Sequence record: PP400784
DNA: 64,000 nucleotides
From: Escherichia phage FL38
Strand: one strand, 5' to 3'
Shown: positions 15,139-63,608 of the stretch, in pieces
Layout: the number at the start of each line of letters is the position of its first letter
How positions within the stretch are numbered: position 1 is the first letter of the stretch
Notes under the pieces: generated by a model
The model's input: only the letters and a program-made list of their open reading frames with translations
Databases searched by the model: none
Told to the model about the DNA's origin: nothing
Position numbers and translations under genes: made by a program

Positions 15139-15173
15139 GGGAGTATCTTACTACTCCCTTAATCCGGTGTCAA
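15139..15173 (-). promoter_or_regulatory. early promoter with inverted repeat (type II): -35 TTGACA, GGGAGTA/TACTCCC arms flanking -10 TAAGAT
   Basis: Minus strand reads TTGACA-17 nt-TAAGAT with a 7-bp palindrome around the -10; upstream of 14352..15110. Confidence 0.5.
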
Positions 15174-15179
15174 CTATTT

Positions 15180-15335
15180 TTAAATTTCTTCTACAGTAAA
15201 GTCTTCAATGTTATTGTGCTCGGAGAACGTTGCCAGACCAGCATTCCATGCATCATCCTCAGAGAAGAATACACCGTAACGTTCATATCCTTTAGCGCCT
15301 TCAAATTTAACCATTAATTTGTGAGTATGTTTCAT
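15180..15335 (-). CDS. hypothetical protein (51 aa; start trimmed to internal ATG)
   Basis: Track ORF 15180..15398 begins inside the promoter palindrome; internal ATG MKHTHK has SD GGAGAATCAAA. Confidence 0.45.
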   Translation of the reverse strand: MKHTHKLMVKFEGAKGYERYGVFFSEDDAWNAGLATFSEHNNIEDFTVEEI

Positions 15336-15366: not shown

Positions 15367-15396
15367 ATTGTAGGGGATCGGCGATCCCCTGTCAAC
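15367..15396 (-). promoter_or_regulatory. early promoter with palindromic spacer (type I): GTTGACA-GGGGATCGCCGATCCCC-TACAAT
   Basis: Perfect 17-nt palindrome fills the -35/-10 spacer exactly. Confidence 0.6.
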
Positions 15397-15405
15397 AACT
15401 ATTTT

Positions 15406-15618
15406 TTAATTTTTACCCGCTCGTGCATTAATACGCATTTTCTGAATAGCCATGATCTGGCTTACTGCTTCTTCTTTACGTTCTTGCGTGATAACGTGAC
15501 CAGATTCCGCAAACTCTCCCGCAACTTCTTCTACGATCTCGCGAACTTGAGAACGTCCAAAGATGCGGTTTCCTTCGTAGCTCATAAACTCGGTTACTAC
15601 TTGCTCGATAGATTTCAT
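15406..15618 (-). CDS. hypothetical protein (70 aa)
   Basis: ORF with SD; preceded by promoter/palindrome element. Confidence 0.5.
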   Translation of the reverse strand: MKSIEQVVTEFMSYEGNRIFGRSQVREIVEEVAGEFAESGHVITQERKEEAVSQIMAIQKMRINARAGKN

Positions 15619-16362: not shown

Positions 16363-16635
16363 TCACCAGTCAAGAGCGCGTGTCTCTGCGTCTTCCCATG
16401 CTTGATCCATAACAGCCTTGAAAACATATTCTAAAGTATCATCTTTAGAGAATCCGAAGACCTTAGACGGAATATCTTCAATTGCTACTCCCGCGACTTC
16501 TGCATTACGCGCTTGGCAATAATGCAACTCTAAGTTATCGAGATAGCGACCGCCTAATTTCTCCATATCATCCCAGCATTTCCAGTAACCTACTTTATTT
16601 GCAATCGCTAACACCTTGCTGTTTTCGTTGTTCAT
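16363..16635 (-). CDS. hypothetical protein (90 aa; start trimmed to MNNENSK)
   Basis: SD AAAGGAGAATCAAAG before the internal ATG; track N-terminal extension reads through the leader. Confidence 0.5.
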   Translation of the reverse strand: MNNENSKVLAIANKVGYWKCWDDMEKLGGRYLDNLELHYCQARNAEVAGVAIEDIPSKVFGFSKDDTLEYVFKAVMDQAWEDAETRALDW

Positions 16636-16703
16636 CTTTGATTCTCCTTTTGTTTGGTATGTGTGTATTATGCAATGATGGATTTGTGAAGTCAACAACT
16701 TTT

Positions 16704-16736
16704 TAAAATAAAAAAGCCGACCACACGGATCGGCTT
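16704..16736 (-). terminator. intrinsic terminator after 16746..17141
   Basis: Minus strand AAGCCGATCCGTGTGGTCGGCTT then TTTTTATTTT; near-identical to the plus-strand hairpin at 6623. Confidence 0.6.
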
Positions 16737-16745
16737 AATAATCAG

Positions 16746-17141
16746 TTACTTACTAAATTTCTTTTTGGCTTCGTCTACCGCATGAGATGCCAGTACCGCA
16801 GCCGCATGTGCACTTTTATCTGTGTTGCAGAGAACGCCCAGATAAACATCACGCCAAAGTTTAATCATCTCGTAGATCATATCAATATCATTTTCTTGTT
16901 TGTTGGCGATGCTATTCGTCGTTATCTGGTAAGATAACGGCTTGATCTGTACTGGTTCCGCCATCGGGCTAATCGGTTTCGGATCAGTCATAATAGGTGC
17001 TGTTGTGGGTGGTGTTTTCCATACGTCATTATTCCACGGTTTAATCGTTGTATCGTAAAGTTTATAAGGATTTTTGTCTGGATTAACCATCCAGGCATGA
17101 TGAGTACCCAAACCATTTGAAGTGATGCGTCGTTCAGTCAT
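16746..17141 (-). CDS. hypothetical protein (131 aa)
   Basis: ORF followed by terminator. Confidence 0.5.
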   Translation of the reverse strand: MTERRITSNGLGTHHAWMVNPDKNPYKLYDTTIKPWNNDVWKTPPTTAPIMTDPKPISPMAEPVQIKPLSYQITTNSIANKQENDIDMIYEMIKLWRDVYLGVLCNTDKSAHAAAVLASHAVDEAKKKFSK

Positions 17142-20936: not shown

Positions 20937-23045
20937 TTAAAATTTAACATTCTTAACCAGTTTCATAAAGTCTTGTGCGCGTTTGTCATTATGCAGAATA
21001 CGATACCAGTTATCTACAATATCATACAGTAACGGGCTATTCTCTTTAAACTTCGCACAAACTGCTTTAATTCGTTCGTTTGCTACCGTGAATTTTTCAT
21101 CACAAATCTTTTTAGTTTCTTCGTCCATAATCCAACGAGTACGAAGGAGTAACTTGGAAACCTCTTTATTATAATGACGACCGTACAGTCTGTCAATAAA
21201 TTCTGGAACACAGCGTTCTAGTTCATCGTCATGAAACAACATAGTGATCACACCCAGATATTCGCCATACCCCAGATGATTGGTCTTAACCTTCTTAGCC
21301 AGACCAGCCAGCTTACCGCGAACAAATTCTAGCGCACATTCCAATTGTTCGTCAACGAGATATTTTTGTGTCTCGTTTCGAGTAATAATATACTTTGTTA
21401 CCCCGAAGTAGTCAAGCGCCGTGTGTAATGTATTTTCACTATGGATCGATTTACGACTACGGCTTTCGAATGAATCACCTACGCGGAACATGTGCAAGCC
21501 TGATAACTCGCGAATCTCTGCCGCTTTCATGTGATGGCTGGTTTTATTCCAACTGTCACCAATCTTTTCCATGATATACACGTTAGGCAGCTTAGGAGTC
21601 GCTTCACGTTGTGTACGCTCGGTCTTCTCCGGTTTAACTGCTTTAGCACGCAGATCATCGGCCTCAGAAACTTTAATCACGGTCATTTCAGAATCATCAT
21701 AATACTGTTTGATGTACTCGAAAGTTTCCATATGTTTTTCGTTGCGCTGACGGAACACCAATACCTTTTTATTGATTCCGTATTCCTGGACCATGCCGTT
21801 AAGAGTCAGTGCACGCAGTTTCGGTTTATCGGTATCATCAATAAGACACGTAATATCTTCTTTATGCATCCATACAAAATGCGTAATGTTGTATTGACTG
21901 CTAACGAAAGCAGGGCGCAATTTACTGATTGTGTTACGAGTACGATATAGAGTATACACCTGACCTTCTACGTCATTTGGCGAATCTTTACCCGCATTCA
22001 CAAACTTATTATAGATTGCTACCGGATCATCCCACTGCCCGATCTTACCCATCTTGCTAATAATATTGCGTTGAGTCGATGAATACTCGCTCATAAATTG
22101 CGCAAGTTTACGCTCTGTTTTAATGTTGGCGATCTTCTCTTTAACCTTTTCCAACATCATTTCATTGATTTCTGCAATACGTTTTTCGATGTTCGCTTTA
22201 GTCTCAATTGACAAGTGAACTTCTTCACGCGATGGCATCAGGTCCAGATCACCCAACTCAAAATTAATGTAAATGGTCTGGTGCTGGCGGTTTACAGCTT
22301 CTAACCATGTTCCGCGAACATATTCATACGGGATCGGATACTGGATCTTACCCATGATTGCATATACTACATAGGAATCGTTATCACGCCCATTACAAAC
22401 ATAATAATTATCAAAGCTAGGGAAATAATTAATTTCGATTGCATTGATATTAGGTTTGTGTTCCCCAAAATGACGCAGTACAAATTGCGCTTCTCGATGC
22501 CATGTCTGAATGTCTTTTTCTTTCACTGGAATAGTGATTTTCAGACCATTGTCTTCATAGGTCGGTTCGTCGAAAATCTGCACCATTTTCGGCATAGAGT
22601 TTTGCACAAATGCCGTAAAGCCATAAGCGCGACCATTGTAATAGTTTACGATTGTAAAGGTGTCAGTGTAGCTATAAGCAGATTTCGCACCTAAACCAAA
22701 AGACCCGATATAGTCATTAGTCTGGTCTTTTGTTGATTCAAAGTAAACCGTAAACAGTTGTTCTAATTCTTTCTTAGACGGAATACCAGTACCATAATCA
22801 CGCACAGAAAAATACGGTTCGATTGCAGTCGGTAAATGAATATCAAACGGACGATCTAAGGTTCCGGCTTCTTTGTGAGTGTCGGTAGCATTGCACGAAT
22901 ACTCACGGACGCAAGCACGCTCACAATATTGATAAGTGTTCTTAGAAAGCACCATAAAAGCCTTGCTACTTGCTTTCAGTGAAAAATCAACCGCACCGCT
23001 CAGGTCACTGCCAAATACTTCTTCATTATCAATATGCATTTTCAT
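20937..23045 (-). CDS. rIIA: rIIA protein (GHKL-type ATPase fold)
   Basis: 702 aa; adjacent to rIIB as in T4; DYGTGIP/GSFGLGAKSAY ATPase-like motifs. Confidence 0.85.
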   Translation of the reverse strand: MKMHIDNEEVFGSDLSGAVDFSLKASSKAFMVLSKNTYQYCERACVREYSCNATDTHKEAGTLDRPFDIHLPTAIEPYFSVRDYGTGIPSKKELEQLFTVYFESTKDQTNDYIGSFGLGAKSAYSYTDTFTIVNYYNGRAYGFTAFVQNSMPKMVQIFDEPTYEDNGLKITIPVKEKDIQTWHREAQFVLRHFGEHKPNINAIEINYFPSFDNYYVCNGRDNDSYVVYAIMGKIQYPIPYEYVRGTWLEAVNRQHQTIYINFELGDLDLMPSREEVHLSIETKANIEKRIAEINEMMLEKVKEKIANIKTERKLAQFMSEYSSTQRNIISKMGKIGQWDDPVAIYNKFVNAGKDSPNDVEGQVYTLYRTRNTISKLRPAFVSSQYNITHFVWMHKEDITCLIDDTDKPKLRALTLNGMVQEYGINKKVLVFRQRNEKHMETFEYIKQYYDDSEMTVIKVSEADDLRAKAVKPEKTERTQREATPKLPNVYIMEKIGDSWNKTSHHMKAAEIRELSGLHMFRVGDSFESRSRKSIHSENTLHTALDYFGVTKYIITRNETQKYLVDEQLECALEFVRGKLAGLAKKVKTNHLGYGEYLGVITMLFHDDELERCVPEFIDRLYGRHYNKEVSKLLLRTRWIMDEETKKICDEKFTVANERIKAVCAKFKENSPLLYDIVDNWYRILHNDKRAQDFMKLVKNVKF

Positions 23046-23059
23046 AATATAATCCTCAC

Positions 23060-23317
23060 TTAATTAAAATCTTCTTTGTCCATCTCTGCGTAGATTACAT
23101 CCCACGCCCATAAATCAATAAACGCATTATATGTCACGGTGCAATCGTTGTCAATCACTTCTTTCGCATATTTCTTGATGTTTTCGTAGGAAACTTGCGG
23201 GTCAATTTTGTGTTTACGAAGGTGCGCATATTCATATCTCAGACATTTCATAAACAGGTCCATCGATTTCTTTTCTCGATGACACTTGGCGATCATAAAA
23301 TCAAAACTTCGACTCAT
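23060..23317 (-). CDS. hypothetical protein (85 aa)
   Basis: ORF. Confidence 0.5.
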   Translation of the reverse strand: MSRSFDFMIAKCHREKKSMDLFMKCLRYEYAHLRKHKIDPQVSYENIKKYAKEVIDNDCTVTYNAFIDLWAWDVIYAEMDKEDFN

Positions 23318-23328
23318 TTTTCTACTCC

Positions 23329-23523
23329 TTATACATTTTCAATTACCCATTGCAGATGGGCTTCTGCGTCAACCAGTTCAGCGCGGCTTTTCTCTAAGCA
23401 CTTGCTGTATTCTTTACGTTCCCACTCGGCAATTTCGTTTTTCAGGACTTCTTCATAGTAAGCAATTACGCCTTTCAGGTCTGAAACTTTACGGCTTGCC
23501 AATTCGATGTAATGGTTACGCAT
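23329..23523 (-). CDS. hypothetical protein (64 aa)
   Basis: ORF. Confidence 0.45.
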   Translation of the reverse strand: MRNHYIELASRKVSDLKGVIAYYEEVLKNEIAEWERKEYSKCLEKSRAELVDAEAHLQWVIENV

Positions 23524-23710
23524 TTTGATTCTCCTTTGTTACTAGATAACGAATTTGGTCTTGCATTGCGATCAGTTCCCAGCGTGCTACTTTCATCATG
23601 GAAACTGACTCTTTGAACATAATATTAGCTTTTTCCTTCTCCCCTGTCAAGTAGATTTCTGCAATTTTTTCACAAAATTTTTGAGTTTCTTCATTCTTAA
23701 ACGGTTTCAT
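23516..23710 (-). CDS. hypothetical protein (64 aa; ATG start chosen over track TTG)
   Basis: The track start is TTG lying in the promoter -35; ATG three codons downstream. Confidence 0.45.
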   Translation of the reverse strand: MKPFKNEETQKFCEKIAEIYLTGEKEKANIMFKESVSMMKVARWELIAMQDQIRYLVTKENQNA

Positions 23711-23776: not shown

Positions 23777-24076
23777 TTAATCTTTTTTCAATGCATCCAT
23801 TACTCGCTCTGCGATCAGTTCTCGTAAGCACTGATAACCATGATATTTGATGGCAATGTCACGCAGATCATTAACCAGTTCCCGTACTTCATGGTCTTTC
23901 AGATCGTCTCTGTATTTCGATTTAACCGTGTCTTTAGGTGGATTGTGGATAACCTGAAAACCTTGTTCTGCAATCACTGCGGCTTCTCGCTGGCGTTCAT
24001 GTTGTACTGTATTTTTGATCAGGTCTACTTCCATGAACTTTGTCATGCTCATCATCATGTTATTCTTTTTGCTCAT
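23777..24076 (-). CDS. hypothetical protein (99 aa; start trimmed to MSKKNN)
   Basis: Track N-terminus reads through the promoter/palindrome; internal ATG has SD GAGGA. Confidence 0.5.
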   Translation of the reverse strand: MSKKNNMMMSMTKFMEVDLIKNTVQHERQREAAVIAEQGFQVIHNPPKDTVKSKYRDDLKDHEVRELVNDLRDIAIKYHGYQCLRELIAERVMDALKKD

Positions 24077-24141
24077 TATTAAATCCTCATAAACGAAAAG
24101 GGAGACTCCCATTATAGAGAATCTCCCTTGTATGTCAAGTG

Positions 24142-25965
24142 TTATGATTGCATCCAAATTTTGCGGCGGTCTGAATCTTCGCTATAGAGCAAATCGAATA
24201 GCTCTTTATAGTTTTCCGGTAACGTGATGATTTCCATTACAGGATCGTTGATCACGCGATGATAATCTGATTCTGTAAGAGATGCTAACCCTTTGATATA
24301 TCGAATGCTATAACCTTTGATATTATCTCGGTCGTTCTCGAAATCTTCTAGGTCATAATACCATCGAACATCATCACCTTTCTTTGGTTCCGCAATGATA
24401 ATAGGTGTTTTGATAAACCGGATTCGTCCATCTTCGAACAATTCAGGCCAACGTGCAAAGAAAGAGATCAGACTAGGTTTAATAGACCCGATCCCGTCAG
24501 TATCAGCGTCTGTCATAATCGCAATATTTTTGTATTGCATAACTTCCAATGCATCAACACCAAATTGCAAACCAGTGATCGCCATGATGTTAAAAATTTC
24601 GGCGTTCTTAACGATCTTTGCCTCCGGTTGTTCCCACGTTGTAAGAGTTTTGCCTCGCAACGGGAAACCTCCATGTAAATCTGGATCACGTACAGAGACC
24701 AGATAGTTGATCGCGGAATCACCTTCCGTCAAAAACAGGGTAGTTTCTGCGTCAGTTCCAATAAGGTTAGCTTTAACGTGTTTTGCTACCTTAGCCCGTT
24801 TCGCTGCTTTGGCTGCCTTAGTCGCTGCCGCTTTATCTGCTGCCTCTTTGCGTGCCAGGACTACAGCAATAATAGGCATGATAATGTTTTCTTTCTTCGC
24901 AATGACTTTAGCCAGCTTTTTAAAATCAAGATCAATATGACGCTTGATATCACCAGTTGGATTAGTCAATCGTTCTTTTGTCTGTGAATCAAAACGAAGG
25001 TTAGGCAATTCACGAACAATAAGAATACAGGTCAATCCAGACTTAACCGCAGCTTTAGTAACATCAACCTTATGTTCTTTCTTGATTCGTTTTACAATCT
25101 CTTCACAAAGATCATCTGTCACGTAGTCTACGTGTGTTCCCCCGTTTTTGGTAAACAGACCATTAGCAAAGGATACTGATTTAAAACCTTCTCCCTCGAC
25201 CGCAGGAACTAGGGCAAGTGAAAAGTTTTTATCTTCAATGACAAACGGATCATCATTGTATAGTTTAGCATAATCCTTGAACTTACTAACAATACGTTTA
25301 CCATTAAACTTAAACGTGATCTTAGGAAAGATTACGCTCAATGATTGCAGACGATCATGAACAATATCTAAAACAGAGTTGTCCATCATATAACCTTCGA
25401 AGTGGTCGAAGTCTGGACAAAATGTAACCTTCGTTCCCTTCAATTTTGATGGTTTTGATGACCATGTGATATTTTCAGCCCCGTTTGTGCATTGAACGGT
25501 CATTTCTGTTTCACCATCACAGGTCACACCAGTAAACCAATCGCTAAAGAAATTTGACAACGACGACCCCACACCGTTCATCCCTTGCGTTAATCGATTG
25601 GTATCATCAAAGTTAGACCCTGCTTTTGTTCGTGTCCATGCGGCTACAGGTTGCGGAATCTGCGTACCCTCTGGGGTAGTAACCATATGTTGAGGAATAC
25701 CGCGACCATTGTCTGTTACCGTAACAATATTGTTTTGGATATCGACGCTAATCACATTGGCAAATTCAAAGTTAGTGCGGATCGCCTCGTCTACAGAGTT
25801 GTCGATGATCTCATCAATGATTTTAACCAGTCCAGGAACATATGAAATTTTTGTCCACTTACCGAACAGGAAACGTTGATGTTCTTCGTAAGTTGTTGAT
25901 CCTATATACATTCCTGCACGCTTAAGGACATGTTCACGATCAGATAAAATGCGAAACTCACTCAT
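24142..25965 (-). CDS. 39: DNA topoisomerase II large subunit (GyrB-like), apparently unsplit
   Basis: 607 aa; GHKL ATPase motif IIDNSVDEA; longer than T4 gp39 (516 aa), consistent with fused 39+60. Confidence 0.9.
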   Translation of the reverse strand: MSEFRILSDREHVLKRAGMYIGSTTYEEHQRFLFGKWTKISYVPGLVKIIDEIIDNSVDEAIRTNFEFANVISVDIQNNIVTVTDNGRGIPQHMVTTPEGTQIPQPVAAWTRTKAGSNFDDTNRLTQGMNGVGSSLSNFFSDWFTGVTCDGETEMTVQCTNGAENITWSSKPSKLKGTKVTFCPDFDHFEGYMMDNSVLDIVHDRLQSLSVIFPKITFKFNGKRIVSKFKDYAKLYNDDPFVIEDKNFSLALVPAVEGEGFKSVSFANGLFTKNGGTHVDYVTDDLCEEIVKRIKKEHKVDVTKAAVKSGLTCILIVRELPNLRFDSQTKERLTNPTGDIKRHIDLDFKKLAKVIAKKENIIMPIIAVVLARKEAADKAAATKAAKAAKRAKVAKHVKANLIGTDAETTLFLTEGDSAINYLVSVRDPDLHGGFPLRGKTLTTWEQPEAKIVKNAEIFNIMAITGLQFGVDALEVMQYKNIAIMTDADTDGIGSIKPSLISFFARWPELFEDGRIRFIKTPIIIAEPKKGDDVRWYYDLEDFENDRDNIKGYSIRYIKGLASLTESDYHRVINDPVMEIITLPENYKELFDLLYSEDSDRRKIWMQS

Positions 25966-26909: not shown

Positions 26910-27152
26910 TTAAATATCCTCCGCGATGTGCCGGAACAACTCCAGATCGTTTTTATCCAGAATGAAACCGCTACAATCAATAATCCCGTTACCGTAATTA
27001 TCGGTTAACAGTCGTTCCGTTGCCATGTATGCGCGTACTTTGTTGTTAAAATTCATTACATGTTGTGCATAGTCACAATGAATCTTTTGACGGTTCCACG
27101 CGACAATTGATTGTAGATGTATTACATTAGCCACATTATTAATAACAACCAT
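26910..27152 (-). CDS. hypothetical protein (80 aa; start chosen at ATG coupled to upstream stop)
   Basis: Track ORF 26910..27215 extends into the repeat; TGAnATG junction with the gene above. Confidence 0.45.
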   Translation of the reverse strand: MVVINNVANVIHLQSIVAWNRQKIHCDYAQHVMNFNNKVRAYMATERLLTDNYGNGIIDCSGFILDKNDLELFRHIAEDI

Positions 27153-27213
27153 ATCAAAACCCTCGCTTAGTGGAATGTTCTGGCATTTTATTGATACATT
27201 CAGCTTGGTAGTC
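27149..27213 (-). repeat. direct repeat copy 1 (~65 bp) spanning a gene junction
   Basis: About 85% identical to 27328..27391. Confidence 0.6.
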
Positions 27214-27330
27214 ACGAGATTTTTTTGACGAATTAAGAGCTACAGCCAAAAAATCCTGTAACTGTTCGTTTGTCATTTTTGGCTTACACCGCGTATCTAA
27301 ACCCTTCGTTCTTCTAGCTTCATTAGCCAT
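27154..27330 (-). CDS. hypothetical small protein (58 aa), ends ...ECINKMPEHSTKRGF
   Basis: Not in ORF track; C-terminus encoded by direct repeat copy 1. Confidence 0.4.
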   Translation of the reverse strand: MANEARRTKGLDTRCKPKMTNEQLQDFLAVALNSSKKSRDYQAECINKMPEHSTKRGF

Positions 27331-27391
27331 ATCAAAAACCTCGCTTAGTGAAATGCTCGATCATTTTATTGATACATGCAGCTTCACTATC
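27328..27391 (-). repeat. direct repeat copy 2 (~65 bp) spanning a gene junction
   Basis: About 85% identical to 27149..27213. Confidence 0.6.
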
Positions 27392-27499
27392 GCCGGACAC
27401 GTTCCAGCCGTATAGACCCCATCTAAAGCACATGGTAACAGTTCCATTGTGACGGCTTACCGTCACATCATTAAATTCTGGGATACTTCGCATAATCAT
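27332..27499 (-). CDS. hypothetical small protein (55 aa), ends ...ACINKMIEHFTKRGF
   Basis: Not in ORF track; SD GAGGAAA; C-terminus encoded by direct repeat copy 2. Confidence 0.4.
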   Translation of the reverse strand: MIMRSIPEFNDVTVSRHNGTVTMCFRWGLYGWNVSGDSEAACINKMIEHFTKRGF

Positions 27500-28901: not shown

Positions 28902-29215
28902 TATCCTAAAATCCTCACCTTGCGAACACAGATAGTATTGAGTTCTCGCCGTACCCGTTCTTTTTCATATTCAGGAATTTTATATTCGATACCATCCCGA
29001 ACAATTTCAGAAGACCGGATTATGCCAAATTTTCGTTTAGGTACAACCTTGTATTTCGGTTCACCCGCCAATAGACTCTCACAATAATCTATCTGATCAC
29101 ACATTGACGCTAACGCAGCATCATGTGTTTCGCAAGTTAGGACGCGACCCTTCGCGTCCACTGAGTATTGAAAGAATCCGTCTTTATCACGATAACATAC
29201 AGCAAATACATGCAT
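28901..29215 (-). CDS. hypothetical protein (104 aa)
   Basis: ORF coupled to dda. Confidence 0.5.
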   Translation of the reverse strand: MHVFAVCYRDKDGFFQYSVDAKGRVLTCETHDAALASMCDQIDYCESLLAGEPKYKVVPKRKFGIIRSSEIVRDGIEYKIPEYEKERVRRELNTICVRKVRILG

Positions 29216-29970
29216 TATAAACCTACCTTCGCTTTCATCAATTCAATCCACGACGCATCAATCGGAAGCCCGTATTTCACGCGTTCTTTTTGTGCTGGCG
29301 TTAAGTTCTCATACTTAGAAAGAGATTCAATCAAAACGCTGGTATATTTTAGCACGATTTCGGTATTGTTTGCAATAGCCTTAAGTTTTTCTTCTTTCTT
29401 GTTGATTTCGCTAAGTGCTTGCTTGAGATCTGCAATTTTCTGATAACGTTCTTCCATACGGAAGAGAGTATTTTTAATCGCTCGCTCGGCTGCCTCTGCT
29501 TTCTCCGGTTCGTTGTGCTTTTTATGGCGCTCGATTGCTAATTTCTTTTCTTCGATTGCCATTTCCTGATTTTTGATGCGATTCTCGTTAAGTTCGATCC
29601 ACTCGATGTACTTCGCACGTAGGGCAATTTCATCATCAGAAAGTTTACCGTTAGTTCCTAGTTCCTGGATCTCTTTAAGAGATTCGATAGTGTGATTGCC
29701 ACGGAAAGAATTGTATTTCAGTTTAACCGGAATTACATTGCCATCAACATATCCCAGATTGCAATCAATGCGCTCTAAGGAGAGTCCGTCATCACCTTCA
29801 CCGAAAGCCTCACCTGAATAGGCACAATGAGTCTGACGGTAAATGTTACGAACAGTGACTAAGCTCATAGAGAAGTCTTTGTTGCGACGTGAAGCACCAG
29901 CCATGATAGAGTTCAGCCGGAAAACAACCAGCGCCAATTCTTCGTTAGATTTAAAAGCAAACAGTTTCAT
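29215..29970 (-). CDS. hypothetical protein (251 aa) with HNH-like N-terminal motif and coiled-coil C-terminus
   Basis: HCAYSGEAFGEGDDGLSLERIDCNLGYVDGNVIP...NSFRGNH resembles a degenerate HNH motif; Lys/Glu-rich C-terminus. Confidence 0.45.
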   Translation of the reverse strand: MKLFAFKSNEELALVVFRLNSIMAGASRRNKDFSMSLVTVRNIYRQTHCAYSGEAFGEGDDGLSLERIDCNLGYVDGNVIPVKLKYNSFRGNHTIESLKEIQELGTNGKLSDDEIALRAKYIEWIELNENRIKNQEMAIEEKKLAIERHKKHNEPEKAEAAERAIKNTLFRMEERYQKIADLKQALSEINKKEEKLKAIANNTEIVLKYTSVLIESLSKYENLTPAQKERVKYGLPIDASWIELMKAKVGL

Positions 29971-30031
29971 AATTGATTCTCCTTAGTTGGTATGTGTGTA
30001 TTATTGTCTATCTGGTTTGTGCTGTCAACAC

Positions 30032-30535
30032 TTAAATTAAAGAAAATTTGTAAATCTCTATCCGATCGCCATTACACGCGTAAACTTCCTCGATCTCATC
30101 AAGGATCATGGTCGTCCCTGTCTTGTATATGCACTCGCGCTCATCTGCCAACATAGCATACAAAGACAGTCGAGTAGTCGGATTGTCATACTCTTTAGAC
30201 ACCACTCGGTCAATAGCATGTTCGTAATAATTCATGCAAGGCTTGGTAGGTTTTATTGCAATAATCTTTCCTGTTGCATAAACATCGGTCGCAAAGTCCT
30301 CTGCTGTTGATTGCAGTGGCGTAAAGCTCATAGGACGCTCTACAACGAAAGAATCGCCTACAATTAAGGTATCCAGCTTACGACCTTCTCTTTTGCTCAC
30401 ACCGCGATACAAGGCTTCATGATGCACTAACCGCTCAGTCTTTTCGATCAATCCATTAAGGATCGACATATCGATATTTTCTTTAGAGTTCATCACTTCA
30501 TCAATGATGTTAAGTTCTTCTGGTGTAAATTGCAT
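30032..30535 (-). CDS. hypothetical protein, possible ADP-ribosyltransferase-like (ModA/ModB position)
   Basis: 167 aa; candidate R (LYRGV), S-x-T (MSFTP) and E-x-E (ERE) motifs in ART order; synteny with T4 mod genes; speculative. Confidence 0.35.
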   Translation of the reverse strand: MQFTPEELNIIDEVMNSKENIDMSILNGLIEKTERLVHHEALYRGVSKREGRKLDTLIVGDSFVVERPMSFTPLQSTAEDFATDVYATGKIIAIKPTKPCMNYYEHAIDRVVSKEYDNPTTRLSLYAMLADERECIYKTGTTMILDEIEEVYACNGDRIEIYKFSLI

Positions 30536-32379: not shown

Positions 32380-32519
32380 TTAAGCGCCACCGACAACAGA
32401 ATGAGAACTACACCAACATACATTGTGATCTCGGATAACTTTTCTGTTTTTGTTTTGTGTCCAGATAATCCGAAAACAACAACACCGATAATAGCGGACA
32501 GCAAGCCAACGATAAACAT
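32376..32519 (-). CDS. putative small membrane protein (47 aa, 2 TM)
   Basis: Not in ORF track; SD GGAGAAAG; stop overlaps the next start (ATGA). Confidence 0.45.
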   Translation of the reverse strand: MFIVGLLSAIIGVVVFGLSGHKTKTEKLSEITMYVGVVLILLSVALK

Positions 32520-36885: not shown

Positions 36886-36907
36886 CCGCCATTATACACA
36901 CTTTATC

Positions 36908-39668: not shown

Positions 39669-40031
39669 TTATCGCCCGATCTGATATTTCTCGATCAGCG
39701 TCCACTCTTCTTTCTGTTTGAAAGACAATACACGGAAATTATTAACTTCGGTAGTTTCAAAATCACTATCAATCAGGGTACACAGATTCCACTGCGCCAG
39801 AAGTTTTGCAATGTTATTACGGCGTAATTCATCTTCCCACGTCATTTTAACACTACGACCATCTAATTTCAACAACTCCTTGAAATGAACGATGTAATAG
39901 CGCCCTTTCTTCTGGAGAATATGACAAGACTGATACAGTGTCTTGTCTCGATTGTTGGCAATGCCGCAGCGGGTTAAAGTTTCCTTAATTTTAAGGAAGT
40001 TTTCAGGACTAATCAAATTAATTTCAATCAT
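39669..40031 (-). CDS. regA: translational repressor RegA
   Basis: 120 aa; MIEI.L..PE.FLK.KETLTR.GIANN.DK.LYQSCHILQKKG.YYIVHFKE matches T4 RegA. Confidence 0.92.
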   Translation of the reverse strand: MIEINLISPENFLKIKETLTRCGIANNRDKTLYQSCHILQKKGRYYIVHFKELLKLDGRSVKMTWEDELRRNNIAKLLAQWNLCTLIDSDFETTEVNNFRVLSFKQKEEWTLIEKYQIGR

Positions 40032-51354: not shown

Positions 51355-52156
51355 TCAAAAATTCAACTTCACGACGTTTAATGTCTTCTTGAAGGTCTTT
51401 AATCTTCTGGCGATCTTGCATGATTTCATCCATCTTGTCAAGTGCCGCAATGAAATCATCGAAACGTTCAAAGGTTTTACCTTCATTTGCTTCGCCAAAT
51501 TTAACCATTGTCAGGCCGTAACGACTACTAAACAGACGTTTCAACTGTCCAACGATCTTAGAATCAGTGGTTATAACTTCCAATTCTTCTACTTCACGAA
51601 AGAATTTTCTATCAGAATCAATAAACCAGCTAGTTCCTTTATGGTCTCTATCTTCGGTTGCGCTCATTAGAGTATGGTCTTTACCATCAATTTCAATTAC
51701 ATCAATTTGCCCACATGGACGAACATTTTTAACAGTAAAAGGTCTATAATTTATTGCTCGTGCAATAACATAATTAAGATTAGATACGTTTTCAGCATAA
51801 TGACAGAAGTCGGTCATAGCATTCGCATCTTTCCAAGTATAAGTTTTACCAACTTCCCATTTCTGGGGAACTTCTTCAACTTCACGAAAGAATTTTCGAT
51901 CGAATGGACTAAAGAAATATGTTGCAGTCCAAATGTCTTTTCCTGTAGCAGTTTTCGCCGTATGATAAACACCGTCTAGCTCTATTGCATCAATCCAACC
52001 GTTACCATCGATCTCGATGATGGTAAATGGCTTGTCACCAATAGCTGCACTAATATCGCTGTTAAGTGGAGAAAGAACACCTTCTCCGTTAGTAATAAAC
52101 TCAGTTTTAGCGTTTTCATCTTTCCAGGTGTAGGTTTTACCAATTTCCCATTTCAT
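51332..52156 (-). CDS. repeat-domain family protein (2 tandem domains + helical tail)
   Basis: MKWEIGKTYTWKD...DRKFFREVEE occurs twice, then tail. Confidence 0.6.
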   Translation of the reverse strand: MKWEIGKTYTWKDENAKTEFITNGEGVLSPLNSDISAAIGDKPFTIIEIDGNGWIDAIELDGVYHTAKTATGKDIWTATYFFSPFDRKFFREVEEVPQKWEVGKTYTWKDANAMTDFCHYAENVSNLNYVIARAINYRPFTVKNVRPCGQIDVIEIDGKDHTLMSATEDRDHKGTSWFIDSDRKFFREVEELEVITTDSKIVGQLKRLFSSRYGLTMVKFGEANEGKTFERFDDFIAALDKMDEIMQDRQKIKDLQEDIKRREVEFLIGKERGW

Positions 52157-52168
52157 AATATATTCCCC

Positions 52169-52669
52169 TTAACCGATTTTATCAAGTTCGTTTAATGCTT
52201 TCTCTGCTTCCTGTATAGCTTGCACCCTTTCCGGCATTTTGTCAAGAAAATCTTTCAACTCTTCAAAACTGGAGATATGACGCAATGCGTTAGCACCGAT
52301 AGCCGCATGTGATTTGCATTCAAAGCGGATTTTATAATTATCCATCGCCAATTTGAGAAGGTCTATTAGATCATATTCATGACCAGGCAATAAAACTTCT
52401 TTGAAGCACGCTCGGTCGCCATCGGAAAACCATATATTATCACCAACATCGATAGAACTAATATAATCCCCTTCGTGATTATAGATTGAACGTACATTAC
52501 CCCAACGGTCTACCGTAGCGACAGTAAATGGTTTATCTAGATATGTAAACACACCATCAATATTAGGTTTTTGTTCGTAACGCCAACAATCACGCAAAAT
52601 GCGCTTTTCGTCCTCACCAACCAACTTATATGTCTTCCCTTCTTCCCATTTCATAATATCATCTCTCAT
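52169..52669 (-). CDS. repeat-domain family protein (1 domain + helical tail)
   Basis: MKWEEGKTY...KPFTVATVD...DRACFKEV, tail with LKDFLDKMP. Confidence 0.6.
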   Translation of the reverse strand: MRDDIMKWEEGKTYKLVGEDEKRILRDCWRYEQKPNIDGVFTYLDKPFTVATVDRWGNVRSIYNHEGDYISSIDVGDNIWFSDGDRACFKEVLLPGHEYDLIDLLKLAMDNYKIRFECKSHAAIGANALRHISSFEELKDFLDKMPERVQAIQEAEKALNELDKIG

Positions 52670-53195
52670 TTTTGATACGTGATTCTAATTGGATCATACG
52701 GTCGCGCGTTTGTTTGTATTCTCGGATAGCACCGATCCGGCTAGGCATACCATCCAGTACGCTCTTAATACCTTCTAGGGTAGTGATTTTAGCAATGCTA
52801 TTATGCAACCCCATCTTATCGATCAACTGAATGTCGTAGGCTTCCATAAGCAGACCCAGACGTTCTAAAGTTAGGTCTTCTTCTTTTTCTTCAGAATCTG
52901 GAATCTTAGGTTCAATAATAACTTCGGTAAAGAAACGACGCTCACCCGACCAAAACCACACACCGGAACAGCCAATAGGGGATTCTTTTAACGTCATAGA
53001 GTCGAAATCACTACCGATAATAGTAATTTCTCTAACATCACCATCATCGTCAATGTCTTCTACCCTAAACGGGCGACCAGCCAACAAGTCAACAATACAT
53101 CTGTTAATAGACGACGAAAATTTAGTCAGTTCGGCTTTCGACGCTTCGCATTCAATCTTGTAAGTTTTACCAACTTCCCATTCCATAATAATCAC
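52659..53195 (-). CDS. repeat-domain family protein (1 domain + helical tail)
   Basis: MEWEVGKTY...RPFRVEDID...ERRFFTEV, tail with LDGMP. Confidence 0.6.
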   Translation of the reverse strand: MIIMEWEVGKTYKIECEASKAELTKFSSSINRCIVDLLAGRPFRVEDIDDDGDVREITIIGSDFDSMTLKESPIGCSGVWFWSGERRFFTEVIIEPKIPDSEEKEEDLTLERLGLLMEAYDIQLIDKMGLHNSIAKITTLEGIKSVLDGMPSRIGAIREYKQTRDRMIQLESRIKNER

Positions 53196-53884: not shown

Positions 53885-53914
53885 AGTATAGGGGATCTCG
53901 CGATCCCCGTCAAG
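53885..53914 (-). promoter_or_regulatory. early promoter with palindromic spacer (type I): TTGACG-GGGATCGCGAGATCCCC-TATACT
   Basis: Inverted repeat fills the spacer. Confidence 0.55.
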
Positions 53915-57009: not shown

Positions 57010-57504
57010 TTATTTTACCAGTTCTGCTAATTCTTTTTCTTTAGCTTCTAGTTCAGCTTTAAGCTGTTTAATCTCTTGTCGCTTCTTATTAGCGGCTTCT
57101 TGCTTACTATTTCGGATAACCTGATCTAGATACAACTCCCAATCCTGAATATTTTTGATAATGTAACCGTCAACATTAATTGGTCGGAGATTCAGTACAG
57201 CTTCCAGTTTAGTCGCAAAAACTTTAATTGCTGGTGTGAAGTATTCATATTCGTTATCTTCAAACCAATAACCTAGACTTGCATTATCAATACGAAGACG
57301 AAGTTCAAGATCAAGGTCTTTATCTTCGGTGTAAAGATCTTTCACCTGACCCAGCGAACTAACAACAACTTTAAAACGAATTTTATCTACACCACCAAAC
57401 ACATCAGTAAGGATACCAGCAATTGAGCTATTAGCGCAAGATTGGTCGCTGAATGCGTCAAGGTTTTCTTTAGTTACAGTATACCAAACATCTTGTACCC
57501 ACAT
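57010..57504 (-). CDS. hypothetical protein, possibly divergent member of the repeat-domain family (coiled-coil C-terminus)
   Basis: YWFEDNEYEYF and KQLKAELEAKEKELAEL tail; weak similarity only. Confidence 0.45.
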   Translation of the reverse strand: MWVQDVWYTVTKENLDAFSDQSCANSSIAGILTDVFGGVDKIRFKVVVSSLGQVKDLYTEDKDLDLELRLRIDNASLGYWFEDNEYEYFTPAIKVFATKLEAVLNLRPINVDGYIIKNIQDWELYLDQVIRNSKQEAANKKRQEIKQLKAELEAKEKELAELVK

Positions 57505-57528
57505 AATATAATCCTCTCGTTGTTAAGT

Positions 57529-57563
57529 GGGAGTATTATAGCATACTCCCTTCGCATGTCAAG
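57529..57563 (-). promoter_or_regulatory. early promoter with inverted repeat (type II): TTGACA-16 nt-TATAAT within GGGAGTAT/ATACTCCC
   Basis: The -10 TATAAT sits in the loop of an 8-bp inverted repeat. Confidence 0.55.
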
Positions 57564-58737
57564 CACTAACTTTTTTCTTTACTGCTTTCACCTTCTGGCG
57601 AATTGCTCGAATCTCTTCGATCTCTTTTTCAGTCTCTTTAACAATTTCTTTGCGATTCTGAATATCTGTATCTAGATTATCATCAAGTTTAGGCAGCATG
57701 TCAATCAAGAACTTTTTAAAGTCTTTCAGGTTTCGGATAACAGCACCTTCACCCATTACCGCCACGCCTACACCATCCGGCAGATCACCAAACAGCTTAA
57801 CCAGTTCAGACAGATGATCATGATCTTCTAGTGCTTCTTCCGGTTCAGATGGCAGTTCAACAAAGTTATAACGTTCATCATTGCTGATCAGGTGATACCA
57901 GCAAAGCCCAAAAGATTTAGGAGTATATTCTACACCACCAACTTCAACTGCGTCAACACTTCCGAAAGAATCTACTTTAGTTACCTTAAATCCATGTTCC
58001 AGCGTTTTAATAATTTCAATAACATGACTGGATACGGTTTCAGTATTAAACCAATGAGGCAAATTATGTGGATTTGGCTTGTATCGTTCGCCTACTTTAA
58101 ATCTCTGACCACGCTCTTGCATACGGACATATTCAACTCGCGTGATTTCCGCGAAGTATTCAAATTCGCTACCGTCAAACAAGCAATTCCATTGATCACA
58201 AAAACGGTCCGCCTTGACGGTTTCACCTTTCGCGGTGATCATGGTAGCTGATCCGTGCAATTCTTCTTCAACTAAAAAGCCATATTCGACAAAATCAACA
58301 AGTTTCATGGCTTCTTTGTGCTCTGGGTCATGCTCTCCCCAGAATCGCTTAAATTCTTGCAAACCTTCTGGGGTAAACGAATAACATTTACCTTTTTCAA
58401 AGTAAGTCGGCATTGCATCCTCTTTCTTGTTCATCGCTTCGTATGCCTCTTTTGAGATACGTTTAAAGTATTTGCGCTCATTGTGCATAATCATAGTAGA
58501 CCAATAATAAACGATATCCTCAGCGGAATAAACTACATCTCCAGCTTCAATAGTAATAACATGACCGTGGTCATCTTTTTCTAATACTTTAAAGCCCTTT
58601 TCTACGATTTCAGCAACCCGAATATGACCACGGCGCGAAGCATCGGTCAGAATAATTGAATAGCGAGAAAAGTCTAGAAACTCATCTTTACCGCCTTCAC
58701 GGAATGCATAGTAATGACCTTCAAAGAATTTAGCCAT
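57559..58737 (-). CDS. repeat-domain family protein (3 tandem domains + helical tail)
   Basis: Three units each with F.xG.YY...GFKV...ERKYF/ERYNF, then tail with NLKDFKKFLIDMLP. Confidence 0.6.
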   Translation of the reverse strand: MAKFFEGHYYAFREGGKDEFLDFSRYSIILTDASRRGHIRVAEIVEKGFKVLEKDDHGHVITIEAGDVVYSAEDIVYYWSTMIMHNERKYFKRISKEAYEAMNKKEDAMPTYFEKGKCYSFTPEGLQEFKRFWGEHDPEHKEAMKLVDFVEYGFLVEEELHGSATMITAKGETVKADRFCDQWNCLFDGSEFEYFAEITRVEYVRMQERGQRFKVGERYKPNPHNLPHWFNTETVSSHVIEIIKTLEHGFKVTKVDSFGSVDAVEVGGVEYTPKSFGLCWYHLISNDERYNFVELPSEPEEALEDHDHLSELVKLFGDLPDGVGVAVMGEGAVIRNLKDFKKFLIDMLPKLDDNLDTDIQNRKEIVKETEKEIEEIRAIRQKVKAVKKKVSA

Positions 58738-58762
58738 AATATAATCCTCTCGTTGTTTAGAT

Positions 58763-58797
58763 GGGAGTATCTTACTACTCCCGTTTCATCATGTCAA
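58763..58797 (-). promoter_or_regulatory. early promoter with inverted repeat (type II): TTGACA-17 nt-TAAGAT within GGGAGTA/TACTCCC
   Basis: Palindrome identical to the one at 15139. Confidence 0.55.
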
Positions 58798-59378: not shown

Positions 59379-59707
59379 TTCACTAATTGAACAGCACGGA
59401 ACAGAATGCGCTCACACGGAAGCAGCATAAATTCCCAACGCGGATCAAAGTCTTTAGCGGTGTATGTTTTCCCATCAACCGAGATTTCACTTACATAACC
59501 AACAGGTGACACTTTAAGAACAGTAAACCCATTCTTGATGACTTCGTAGGTATATTTCACCCCTTCGTATTCATCATCTAAGAAGTCTTTATGTGCTTGC
59601 TCAGATTTAAAAACATAGGCAACACCGGATTTAAACATCTTACGCATTGTTGATTCTCCTTCTTGATTAGATGGGAGTATTTTACTACTCCCATTTCTTA
59701 TTGTCAA
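59375..59707 (-). CDS. repeat-domain family protein (single domain, no tail)
   Basis: MFKSGVAYVF...GFTVLKV...ERILFRAV. Confidence 0.55.
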   Translation of the reverse strand: MTIRNGSSKILPSNQEGESTMRKMFKSGVAYVFKSEQAHKDFLDDEYEGVKYTYEVIKNGFTVLKVSPVGYVSEISVDGKTYTAKDFDPRWEFMLLPCERILFRAVQLVK

Positions 59708-63578: not shown

Positions 63579-63608
63579 AGTATAGGGGATCACCGATCCC
63601 CTGTCAAC
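63579..63608 (-). promoter_or_regulatory. early promoter with palindromic spacer (type I): GTTGACA-GGGGATCGGTGATCCCC-TATACT
   Basis: Perfect 17-nt palindrome as spacer. Confidence 0.6.

Follow-up and report, generated by a model that had tools for sequence, protein, structure and literature searches.

Two look-alike promoter-leader regions of Escherichia phage FL38 are very probably copies of the early-expression cassette of RB49-like phages

Two minus-strand regions of Escherichia phage FL38 (PP400784), one before an srd-like gene and one at 16.7 kb before a gene for a 90-aa hypothetical protein, resemble each other closely from the promoter to the start codon. Both are very probably instances of the cassette that RB49-like (Krischvirus) phages normally use for early expression, and the 16.7-kb copy, with its hairpin included, appears to be a full PeSL (promoter-early stem-loop). 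The DNA analysed is a stretch of 64,000 nucleotides, referred to as the window, which is 99-99.9% identical to Krischvirus genomes (RB49/phi1/JSE-like T4-type coliphages). For the parts of the genome beyond the window, the complete genome of phage Delraymugoa (OR896825, 99% identical) was used as a proxy. The elements of the two regions are the following.

30030-30060, minus strand: A/T-rich tract upstream of srd, seen in the sequence, with a presumed UP-element-like role
30023-30028, minus strand: srd -35 element TTGACA with a G in front (GTTGACA, 30029-30023), from the promoter scan and a minus_35_signal in GEC-3S (HE978309)
30006-30022, minus strand: srd spacer of 17 nt, free of a stem-loop in the inverted-repeat search
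30000-30005, minus strand: srd -10 element AATAAT, from the promoter scan and the GEC-3S annotation
29999-29987, minus strand: shared 13-mer ACACACATACCAA of the srd site, seen in the sequence
29994-29999, minus strand: srd discriminator ACACAC (-6 to -1), probably untranscribed, from the family consensus AC.C.C-CAT and the RB49 preference for C at -3 to -1
29971-29993, minus strand: predicted srd 5' UTR AUACCAACUAAGGAGAAUCAAUU, 23 nt, unstructured, with the putative start A at 29993
29973-29984, minus strand: srd Shine-Dalgarno (SD) module AAGGAGAATCAA, with GGAG at 29982-29979 and an 8-nt spacer to the ATG
29970, minus strand: srd ATG, preceded by TT, with CT between the 13-mer and the SD module
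29215-29970, minus strand: srd-like gene, 251 aa, the cargo of the cassette, named from GenBank annotation
16706-16736, minus strand: intrinsic-terminator-like hairpin AAGCCGATC-CGTGT-GGTCGGCTT followed by a T-run, with a 9-bp stem containing 5 G-C pairs (the hairpin itself at 16736-16714)
16690-16695, minus strand: -35 element TTGACT of the 16.7-kb site, with a G and AAAAAGTT in front (GTTGACT, 16696-16690), a minus_35_signal in GEC-3S
16667-16672, minus strand: -10 element CATAAT of the 16.7-kb site after a 17-nt spacer, from the promoter scan and the GEC-3S annotation
16666-16654, minus strand: shared 13-mer ACACACATACCAA of the 16.7-kb site, seen in the sequence
16661-16666, minus strand: discriminator ACACAC of the 16.7-kb site, part of the upstream half of the cassette (terminator plus promoter)
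16636-16660, minus strand: predicted 5' UTR AUACCAAACAAAAGGAGAAUCAAAG of the 16.7-kb site, 25 nt, unstructured, with the putative start A at 16660
16638-16649, minus strand: SD module AAGGAGAATCAA of the 16.7-kb site, with an 8-nt spacer to the ATG
16635, minus strand: ATG of the 16.7-kb site, preceded by AG, with ACAA between the 13-mer and the SD module
16363-16635, minus strand: gene for the 90-aa hypothetical protein (an ORFan), the cargo of the cassette

An independent promoter scan matches the srd site to the sigma-70 consensus at 11/12 positions and the 16.7-kb site at 10/12, both with 17-nt spacers. Each site combines an A/T-rich upstream sequence with sigma-70-type -35 and -10 elements, as in PeSL promoters, and the conserved block ends in both with AAGGAGAATCAA, 2 nt and the ATG, as in the SD and start codon of a PeSL. 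Both also fit the RB49-type early promoter, having GTTGAC, A at -11, T at -7, a C-rich stretch at -3 to -1 and a predicted start approximately 7 nt past the -10 box. In the GEC-3S record (HE978309), both sites are marked by promoter, minus_35 and minus_10 features, and the hairpin of the 16.7-kb site by a terminator feature. The annotation of G37-3 likewise calls this hairpin a terminator; it appears to be the stem-loop part of the PeSL and probably ends the transcript of the upstream 131-aa gene. The srd site has no terminator hairpin in the scan, and a search there for inverted repeats (arms of 6 nt or more, within 30 nt) was likewise negative. The stop codon of a modB-like ORF (30032-30535) lies 2 nt before the GTTGACA of the srd promoter, and the 3' end of this ORF overlaps the upstream A/T tract, which is therefore coding sequence. 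The srd-like product is annotated in GenBank records of relatives as an anti-sigma factor or decoy; in Pfam, neither the 251-aa Srd-like protein nor the 90-aa protein has a match.

Transcription probably starts at the A of the conserved CAT (29993 and 16660), because this base lies 7 nt from the -10 box and the CAT is conserved. Placing the -10 box at -12 to -7 makes ACACAC the discriminator at -6 to -1, so that the first half of the 13-mer would be promoter DNA. The initial annotation had treated ACACACATACCAA as a 5' leader; its downstream part indeed falls within the predicted UTR, but the first 6 nt probably precede the start. The predicted UTRs of 23 and 25 nt are A/C-rich and U-poor, with AAGGAG 8 nt before the AUG. 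Their folding energies (-0.5 and -0.4 kcal/mol for the first 30-32 nt) are no better than those of shuffled sequences. A riboswitch-like or hairpin operator in the leaders was also considered and was dropped, as folding gave no structure. The Rfam 15 scan of the whole window returned no family at the gathering threshold.

In the proposed mechanism, the host sigma-70 RNA polymerase would recognise the A-rich tract, GTTGAC(A/T), the 17-bp spacer and the -10 box, all of which are observed as sequence matches. Transcription would begin at the A of the conserved CAT, 7 nt past the -10 box, and the transcript would carry an unstructured, A/C-rich leader of 23-25 nt with a strong SD (AAGGAG) 8 nt before the AUG. 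Any ORF placed behind such a cassette would then be expressed strongly and immediately after infection. The two copies would be alike for two reasons: they descend from, and continue to recombine within, a family of approximately 50 cassettes, and promoter and ribosome-site function would constrain their sequence. The cassettes would additionally serve as patches of homology by which small genes are inserted, deleted or swapped.

When aligned, the two sites are identical over 18 nt (ATAATACACACATACCAA) and again over 12 nt (AAGGAGAATCAA), with a 2-nt length difference between these blocks (CT versus ACAA); GTTGAC and a CACAAA in the spacer are also common to both. The 18-mer has 2 matches in the window at up to 3 mismatches against 0.15 expected; AAGGAGAATCA, with up to 1 mismatch allowed, occurs 10 times where 1.74 are expected, and 0 of 100 shuffles gave as many. 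The two look-alike regions are thus present where the initial annotation had placed them, with a resemblance far beyond chance, except that the lower bound given for the second site, 16640, falls 4 nt short (the ATG is at 16635). The consensus string proposed for them hides the 2-nt indel. The alignment also extends the likeness beyond the generic -35 and SD elements. Chance together with a generic sigma-70 promoter and SD consensus has a virtually negligible probability of explaining the resemblance: the 13-mer ACACACATACCAA alone, at up to 2 mismatches, is no more common in the window than expected (3 versus 1.6), but the 18-nt and 12-nt exact blocks occur in the same order and spacing, and the discriminator, start and leader positions are informative across 52 cassettes. 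The two genes had been called unrelated, and their proteins indeed have no significant mutual similarity (best BLASTP E = 0.021 over 30 residues).

The same architecture is found far more widely than at the two genes for which it had been noted. A scan for cassettes, defined as TTGAC, 16-19 nt and a -10 box directly before an ORF (with leaders of 22-50 nt for the genome set), gave approximately 20 minus-strand short-leader cassettes in the window and 52 in the complete Delraymugoa genome. The layout of the family is GTTGAC-N17-(-10)-AC.C.CAT...(A)AGGAG(A/T)ATCAA-ATG. An A-tract with the consensus AAAAAAGTT precedes GTTGAC(A), and the 17-nt spacer often contains a palindrome. In the 52 cassettes, the discriminator and start, A-C-(A/T)-C-(C/A)-C-A-T, are conserved at 65-83% per position (approximately 1 bit). 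The leader consists of an A/C-rich stretch such as ACCGAAACGA or CGAAAC, followed by (A)AGGAG(A/T)ATCAA, 0-3 nt and the ATG. Eight promoters across the genome have ACACACAT after the -10 box. From CATACCAACTAAGGAGAATCAA onward, the srd leader is identical to one outside the window, at genome position 124346, and another leader, at 36893, reads ACACACATACCGAAACGAACTAGGAGAATCAATT-ATG. A further sequence, AAUUAUGA, is private to srd and a few other cassettes. Additionally, a scan of IMG/VR for AATACACACATACCAA returned 14 matches, comprising 3 Krischvirus srd loci, 1 early-like promoter of a siphovirus and 10 matches without a promoter context.

In global alignments from the -35 element to the ATG, the two sites are 82% identical, compared with a family median of 58-61%. 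They rank 2nd of 190 cassette pairs in the window and 23rd of 1326 genome-wide, where each site has a closer leader partner elsewhere; the pair noticed initially is one of the most alike copies falling within the window. A recent event specific to this pair, in which one promoter arose from the other by copying or gene conversion, is improbable. It could account for their second place among the window pairs and for the CACAAA common to both in an otherwise variable spacer, but it does not agree with the genome-wide rank, the closer leader partners at 32448 and 124346, the replacement of the CACAAA of the 16.7-kb site by CCATAA in ECD7, pEJ01 and G37-3, or the finding, described below, that the 13-mer at 16.7 kb was put together from two different cassettes.

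The cassette appears to include the ribosome-binding site as well as the promoter. Among the 283 annotated CDS of Delraymugoa, with promoter-proximal genes defined as those having an early promoter 12-80 nt upstream, GGAG[AT]ATCA near the start is present in 27/65 promoter-proximal genes, compared with 1/172 other minus-strand and 0/46 other plus-strand genes (27/65 versus 1/218 for all others; Fisher's exact p = 9e-19). This near-exclusive association indicates that the promoter and the ribosome site form one unit, and the conserved block consequently spans the A-tract to the ATG. A second SD module, GGAT[TA]ATA[TA] (the core of GAGGATTATATT-ATG), is not restricted to promoter-proximal genes, occurring in 8/65 of them, 8/172 other minus-strand and 1/46 other plus-strand genes. 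Arbiol et al. (PMC2839356) likewise describe the conservation of PeSLs as spread over an interval of approximately 100 bp.

The srd gene and its region are present in 58/58 related genomes, and in the five sequences compared, the site is invariant from the -35 element to the ATG save for two spacer positions. Because the Krischvirus clade is shallow, with 96-100% DNA identity, this invariance says little about selection; in DNA and protein searches, the next Srd homologues have approximately 33% protein identity. Selection and recent common descent may both account for the conservation of the leader at such identity. The lack of a stem-loop, the presence of the gene in all 58 relatives and the invariance of the site suggest that the srd copy is a plain, hairpin-free early promoter with the family leader rather than a complete or typical shuffling PeSL.

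The 16.7-kb locus, by comparison of relatives, varies downstream of a conserved 131-aa gene (16746-17141). An extra 68-aa gene, accounting for approximately 273 bases, is present in at least 8 of the 40 relatives listed, namely pEJ01, UPWr_E1, LF73P4, KMB43, JK32, SSG23 and two Makalu phages. In pEJ01, the first cassette has the same terminator and promoter followed by ACACACAGTGAAAC...GGAGATTCAAAA-ATG of the 68-aa gene, and the second reads ATTGACACC...GGGAGTAGTAACAT-ACTCCCATACCAAACAAAAGGAGAATCAAAG-ATG of the 90-aa gene. A three-way comparison reveals that the window cassette equals the first pEJ01 cassette up to ...CATAATACACACA and is 100% identical to the second from CATACCAAAC... (CATACC) onward, with the switch between ACACAC and ATACC, at the predicted start site. 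The 16.7-kb copy therefore appears to be chimeric, joined at the 3' edge of ACACAC, where transcription is predicted to start; either a deletion or an insertion may have produced it.

Related phages have another promoter before the 90-aa gene, followed by ACTCCCATACCAA (ACTCCC-ATACCAA), and the predicted 25-nt UTR travels with the gene. Given the chimeric junction, and because ACTCCC-ATACCAA serves this gene equally, the 13-mer (16666-16654) does not form a conserved unit at this locus. In ECD7, the same promoter is fused inside the SD module, between GGAGAATCA and C (...AAAAGGAGAATCAC-ATGAAATCTATT), to a 70-aa gene that is found in the window at 15406-15618. The discriminator of the 16.7-kb site also drifts, reading ACACCC in GEC-3S and ACACAA in ECD7, with the transcribed part unchanged. 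The 16.7-kb and ECD7 junctions both lie between the -10 box and the SD or ATG, which is the interval to which the crossovers of PeSL mini-circles were mapped by experiment (PMC2839356).

These properties agree with those of PeSLs (Arbiol et al. 2010, PMC2839356; Comeau et al. 2014, PMC4122927), which are found in the same phage group and have the same layout from the upstream stop codon to the start codon. According to Arbiol et al. (2010), RB49 and phi1 carry approximately 50 PeSLs each, composed of an AT-rich tract, -35 and -10 elements, a stem-loop, an SD and a start codon; the stem-loops terminate transcription, and the mapped crossovers fall in the interval from the -10 box to the ATG or SD. 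The promoters are described there as very strong, in that most clones had gained -35 or -10 mutations and one wild-type clone gave approximately 13,000 Miller units (PMC2839356). PeSLs precede small ORFans in hyperplastic regions, and the 16.7-kb site is alike in this respect, its chimeric junction included. The srd copy differs in that it has the promoter-leader half only, without the stem-loop, and precedes a conserved gene.

Similarly, RB49-type early promoters (Desplats et al. 2002; Nolan et al. 2006, PMC1524935) share the GTTGAC, the A-rich tract and the C-rich -3 to -1 positions with both sites. The RB49 early consensus given there has G at -33 and is C-rich at -3 to -1, and it is reported to agree with the mapping of 5' ends (Nolan et al. 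2006, PMC1524935). At -12, the RB49-type -10 box has T or C (PMC1524935); the srd site has A and the 16.7-kb site has C. The published RB49 logo, as far as the text describes it, appears to end near the start, which leaves the shared transcribed leader outside that description (PMC1524935). The available text of the PeSL paper (PMC2839356) likewise contains neither the AC.C.CAT discriminator and start nor the link of GGAG(A/T)ATCAA with promoter-proximal genes, both of which are quantified here. The cassette itself is already known as part of the published early-promoter/PeSL family, and nothing at the two sites departs from the published picture. The additions made here are modest: the discriminator and start consensus is quantified, the SD module is coupled to the promoter, and two natural junctions are fine-mapped, one to the start site and the other to the SD module. 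Only the coupling of the SD module to promoter-proximal genes and the near-match to RegB/S1 sites discussed below go beyond the literature examined.

Reuse of the same leader had suggested co-regulation to the initial annotation, possibly through the translational repressor RegA. The first idea is retained in part, since simultaneous, immediate-early expression of the two genes is predicted, but the proposed RegA operator finds no support. That ACACACAUACCAA and the SD together form a common translational operator for RegA or another repressor, specific to the two genes, is highly improbable. RegA is encoded in the window (39669-40031; PF01818, E = 2e-54), and the srd initiation region contains AAUUAUGA, as does the T4 gene 44 operator AAAUUAUGAUU. 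However, the predicted start leaves the first 6 nt of the 13-mer untranscribed, the leader, which is rich in C, is common to dozens of genes, and the bases next to the AUG, where RegA usually binds, differ between the two sites (CAAUUAUG versus CAAAGAUG). Additionally, the initiation regions of the orthologues of 44, 45, 62, rIIB, regA and rpbA in this phage are unlike the leader, and the 90-aa gene in relatives works behind ACTCCC in place of ACACAC. The RegA operators of T4 and RB69, such as aaAAUUGUUAUGUAA and AAUAAUAAUAAnA, are A+U-rich, unstructured and located at or just 5' of the AUG, and a poly(A) tract is often present on their 5' side (PMC3014915). The element examined here resembles them as a short unstructured RNA in the initiation region of pre-replicative genes, with RegA encoded nearby, but its composition is C/A-rich, its position is upstream of the SD, and part of it is predicted not to be transcribed.

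A post-transcriptional role that would add to the explanation of the two sites as early-expression cassettes, without replacing it, involves the endoribonuclease RegB. In T4, RegB together with ribosomal protein S1 cuts GG^AG in the SDs of early mRNAs, with the 11-nt consensus GGAGRAYARAA (Durand et al. 2006, PMC1702504). The SD module GGAGAAUCAA(A/U) could be such a cleavage site, by which promoter-proximal early mRNAs would be inactivated together within minutes after infection; this is possible, though less than likely. The module matches 10/11 positions of GGAGRAYARAA and is predicted to be single-stranded: the GGAG would lie unpaired in the SD position of an early leader (folding at approximately -0.5 kcal/mol), as in RegB sites. 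It also occurs almost solely at genes that come first behind an early promoter (27/65 versus 1/218), the class targeted by T4 RegB (PMC1702504). A RegB homologue (PF10715, E = 1e-48) is encoded outside the window in the 99%-identical genome; the initiation region of regB itself, GGAUAAUAAAA, follows the strict consensus, and the GGAU site of RB49 regB is reported to be cut in vivo (PMC3014915).

The likeness to T4 sites is a single-stranded GGAG followed by a purine/A-rich 7-mer in the SDs of early genes of a phage with a RegB gene, but the candidate site has C at position 8, where T4 sites prefer A. The segment AAUCAA(A/U) agrees with RAYARAA at 6/7 positions, and the mismatch, the C, falls on the strongly A-biased position 8, which is among the three positions where A is most conserved. 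In cleaved T4 sites, C is almost absent from the A-rich tract, and the T4 denV sequence GGAGAACACUA, which has C residues in the tract, is resistant (PMC1702504). Moreover, only 24/68 tested intergenic GGAG/U sites in T4 were cut efficiently (PMC1702504), and the spread of the cassette as one unit, or its common descent, accounts equally well for the coupling of module and promoter. A putative RegB cut, if any, would lie between the G and A of GGAG, at 29981/29980 and 16646/16645.

A broader form of this proposal concerns the leader as well as the SD module. Unstructured A/C-rich translational enhancers, such as leaders containing ACA or CAA (the TMV omega leader, for example), bind ribosomal protein S1. 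As putative enhancers, the leaders here resemble them in placing the A/C-rich AUACCAA(A)C(A)A, nearly free of U and G and predicted to be unfolded, immediately before the SD; they differ in being only 10-12 nt long and adjoining a strong SD. ACA motifs are also mentioned in PMC1702504. It may be speculated that the cassette carries its own off-switch, in which GGAGAAUCAA is a dedicated site for RegB/S1 or another early-specific inactivation and the AUACCAA/AUCGAAAC leader is a landing pad for S1; this is doubtful. If true, any captured ORF would obtain both immediate-early transcription and a timed translational shut-off. If the RegB coupling is true, mobile cassettes would carry a built-in temporal shut-off.

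The resemblance that was noticed between the two regions is fully explained by the early-expression cassette of Krischvirus phages. Look-alike Krischvirus leaders do not define a private two-gene regulon; the repeated promoter-leader is a cassette by which small accessory genes would be switched on early and shuffled. For annotation, a look-alike leader in these phages would point to an immediate-early transcription unit and to a likely breakpoint at which genes are gained or lost.

Five promoter cassettes stand in tandem on the minus strand between 15100 and 16740, each preceding a small ORF of 51-252 aa, which gives this stretch the look of a hyperplastic region. The cassette with its -35 box at 15395 and its 51-aa gene are found in the related phages ECD7 and G37-3 and seem to be missing from Delraymugoa, a Krischvirus genome that is otherwise 99% identical; at this cassette and gene, the coordinate offset between the window and Delraymugoa changes by 273 bp.

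Tandem cassettes
15173, 15395, 15677, 15989, 16695, minus strand: -35 boxes
15180-15335, minus strand: 51-aa gene of the cassette at 15395

Two kinds of inverted repeat are present within minus-strand promoters. At three sites, the spacer contains the palindrome GGGGATC-N3-GATCCCC, and the phage that carries these spacers encodes several DNA methyltransferases. In four other promoters, the hairpin GGGAGTAGTAAGATACTCCC is formed by pairing of the spacer end with the discriminator ACTCCC, and the -10 box occupies the loop. Among the PeSLs (promoter-early stem-loops) known from RB49/phi1, these four promoters belong to the class with a stem-loop overlapping the -10 box.

Promoters with inverted repeats
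15367-15395, 53885-53913, 63579-63607, minus strand: palindrome in the spacer
15145-15173, 58769-58797, 59679-59707, 57535-57562, minus strand: -10 box in the hairpin loop

The leaders also vary: in about a dozen, the A/C-rich start is followed, ahead of the ribosome site, by an extra block of ~14 nt, GA(G/A)A(T/C)AC(A/C)ACTTTCT(T)A, and these leaders form a long-leader subclass of 40-46 nt.

Long-leader cassettes with the ~14-nt block
Window 53913, 63607
Delraymugoa 32204, 33153, 33934, 37287, 45719, 125522, 136769, 137731, 139724

Another ribosome-site module of stereotyped sequence is GAGGATTATATT-ATG, with ~8 copies in the window and 11 genome-wide; it contains GGAU, the minor motif of the early-mRNA endoribonuclease RegB. 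In contrast to GGAGAATCAA, this module serves promoter-proximal and operon-internal genes alike: in Delraymugoa its core GGAT[TA]ATA[TA] precedes 8 of the 65 promoter-proximal genes versus 8 of the 172 other minus-strand genes.

Second ribosome-site module
13814-62892 (range; e.g. 23043-23068, 57502-57527, 58735-58760, plus-strand coordinates), minus-strand sites: GAGGATTATATT-ATG

Only one exact AAGGAGAATCA in the window, at 23526-23536 (minus strand, preceding the ORF 23329-23523), has no promoter directly ahead of it. A promoter-like CTTGACA...TAATAT is located 85 nt ahead, inside the upstream ORF, and this copy may be the leftover of a decayed cassette. The topoisomerase large-subunit gene (24142-25965) is directly followed by a superimposed promoter and terminator, which stand upstream of the small ORF 23777-24157: a 13-bp hairpin, AAGGGAGATTCTC...GGGAGTCTCCCTT, holds the -10 box of the promoter in its loop and is followed by TTTCGTTT.

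24098-24138, minus strand: consensus promoter CTTGACA, 16 nt, TATAAT

Repeats also occur among the small genes. A 58-nt direct repeat (27149-27206 and 27327-27384, 88% identical) covers the starts of two adjoining minus-strand genes, 27154-27330 and 27332-27499, which suggests tandem duplication of a small gene. At 51807-53190, four copies of the motif …GTTTTACCAA(C/T)TTCCCATTTC… (32-57 nt, 291-532 bp apart) probably represent small paralogous genes arranged in tandem, or else a domain that is repeated.

A similar cassette, ...CTAGACACACGATGCGTCTAGTGCCATAAT-ACACACATACCAACAAACAACGGAGTAAACAAA-ATG, is present at L014:12762-12777, L014 being the 60.7-kb IMG/VR contig IMGVR_UViG_3300029643_000005, a siphovirus contig that resembles coliphage slur01 at about 85% identity. 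Its -10 box, discriminator and leader start are the same, its spacer has a palindrome, and the coliphage that carries it is apparently unrelated.
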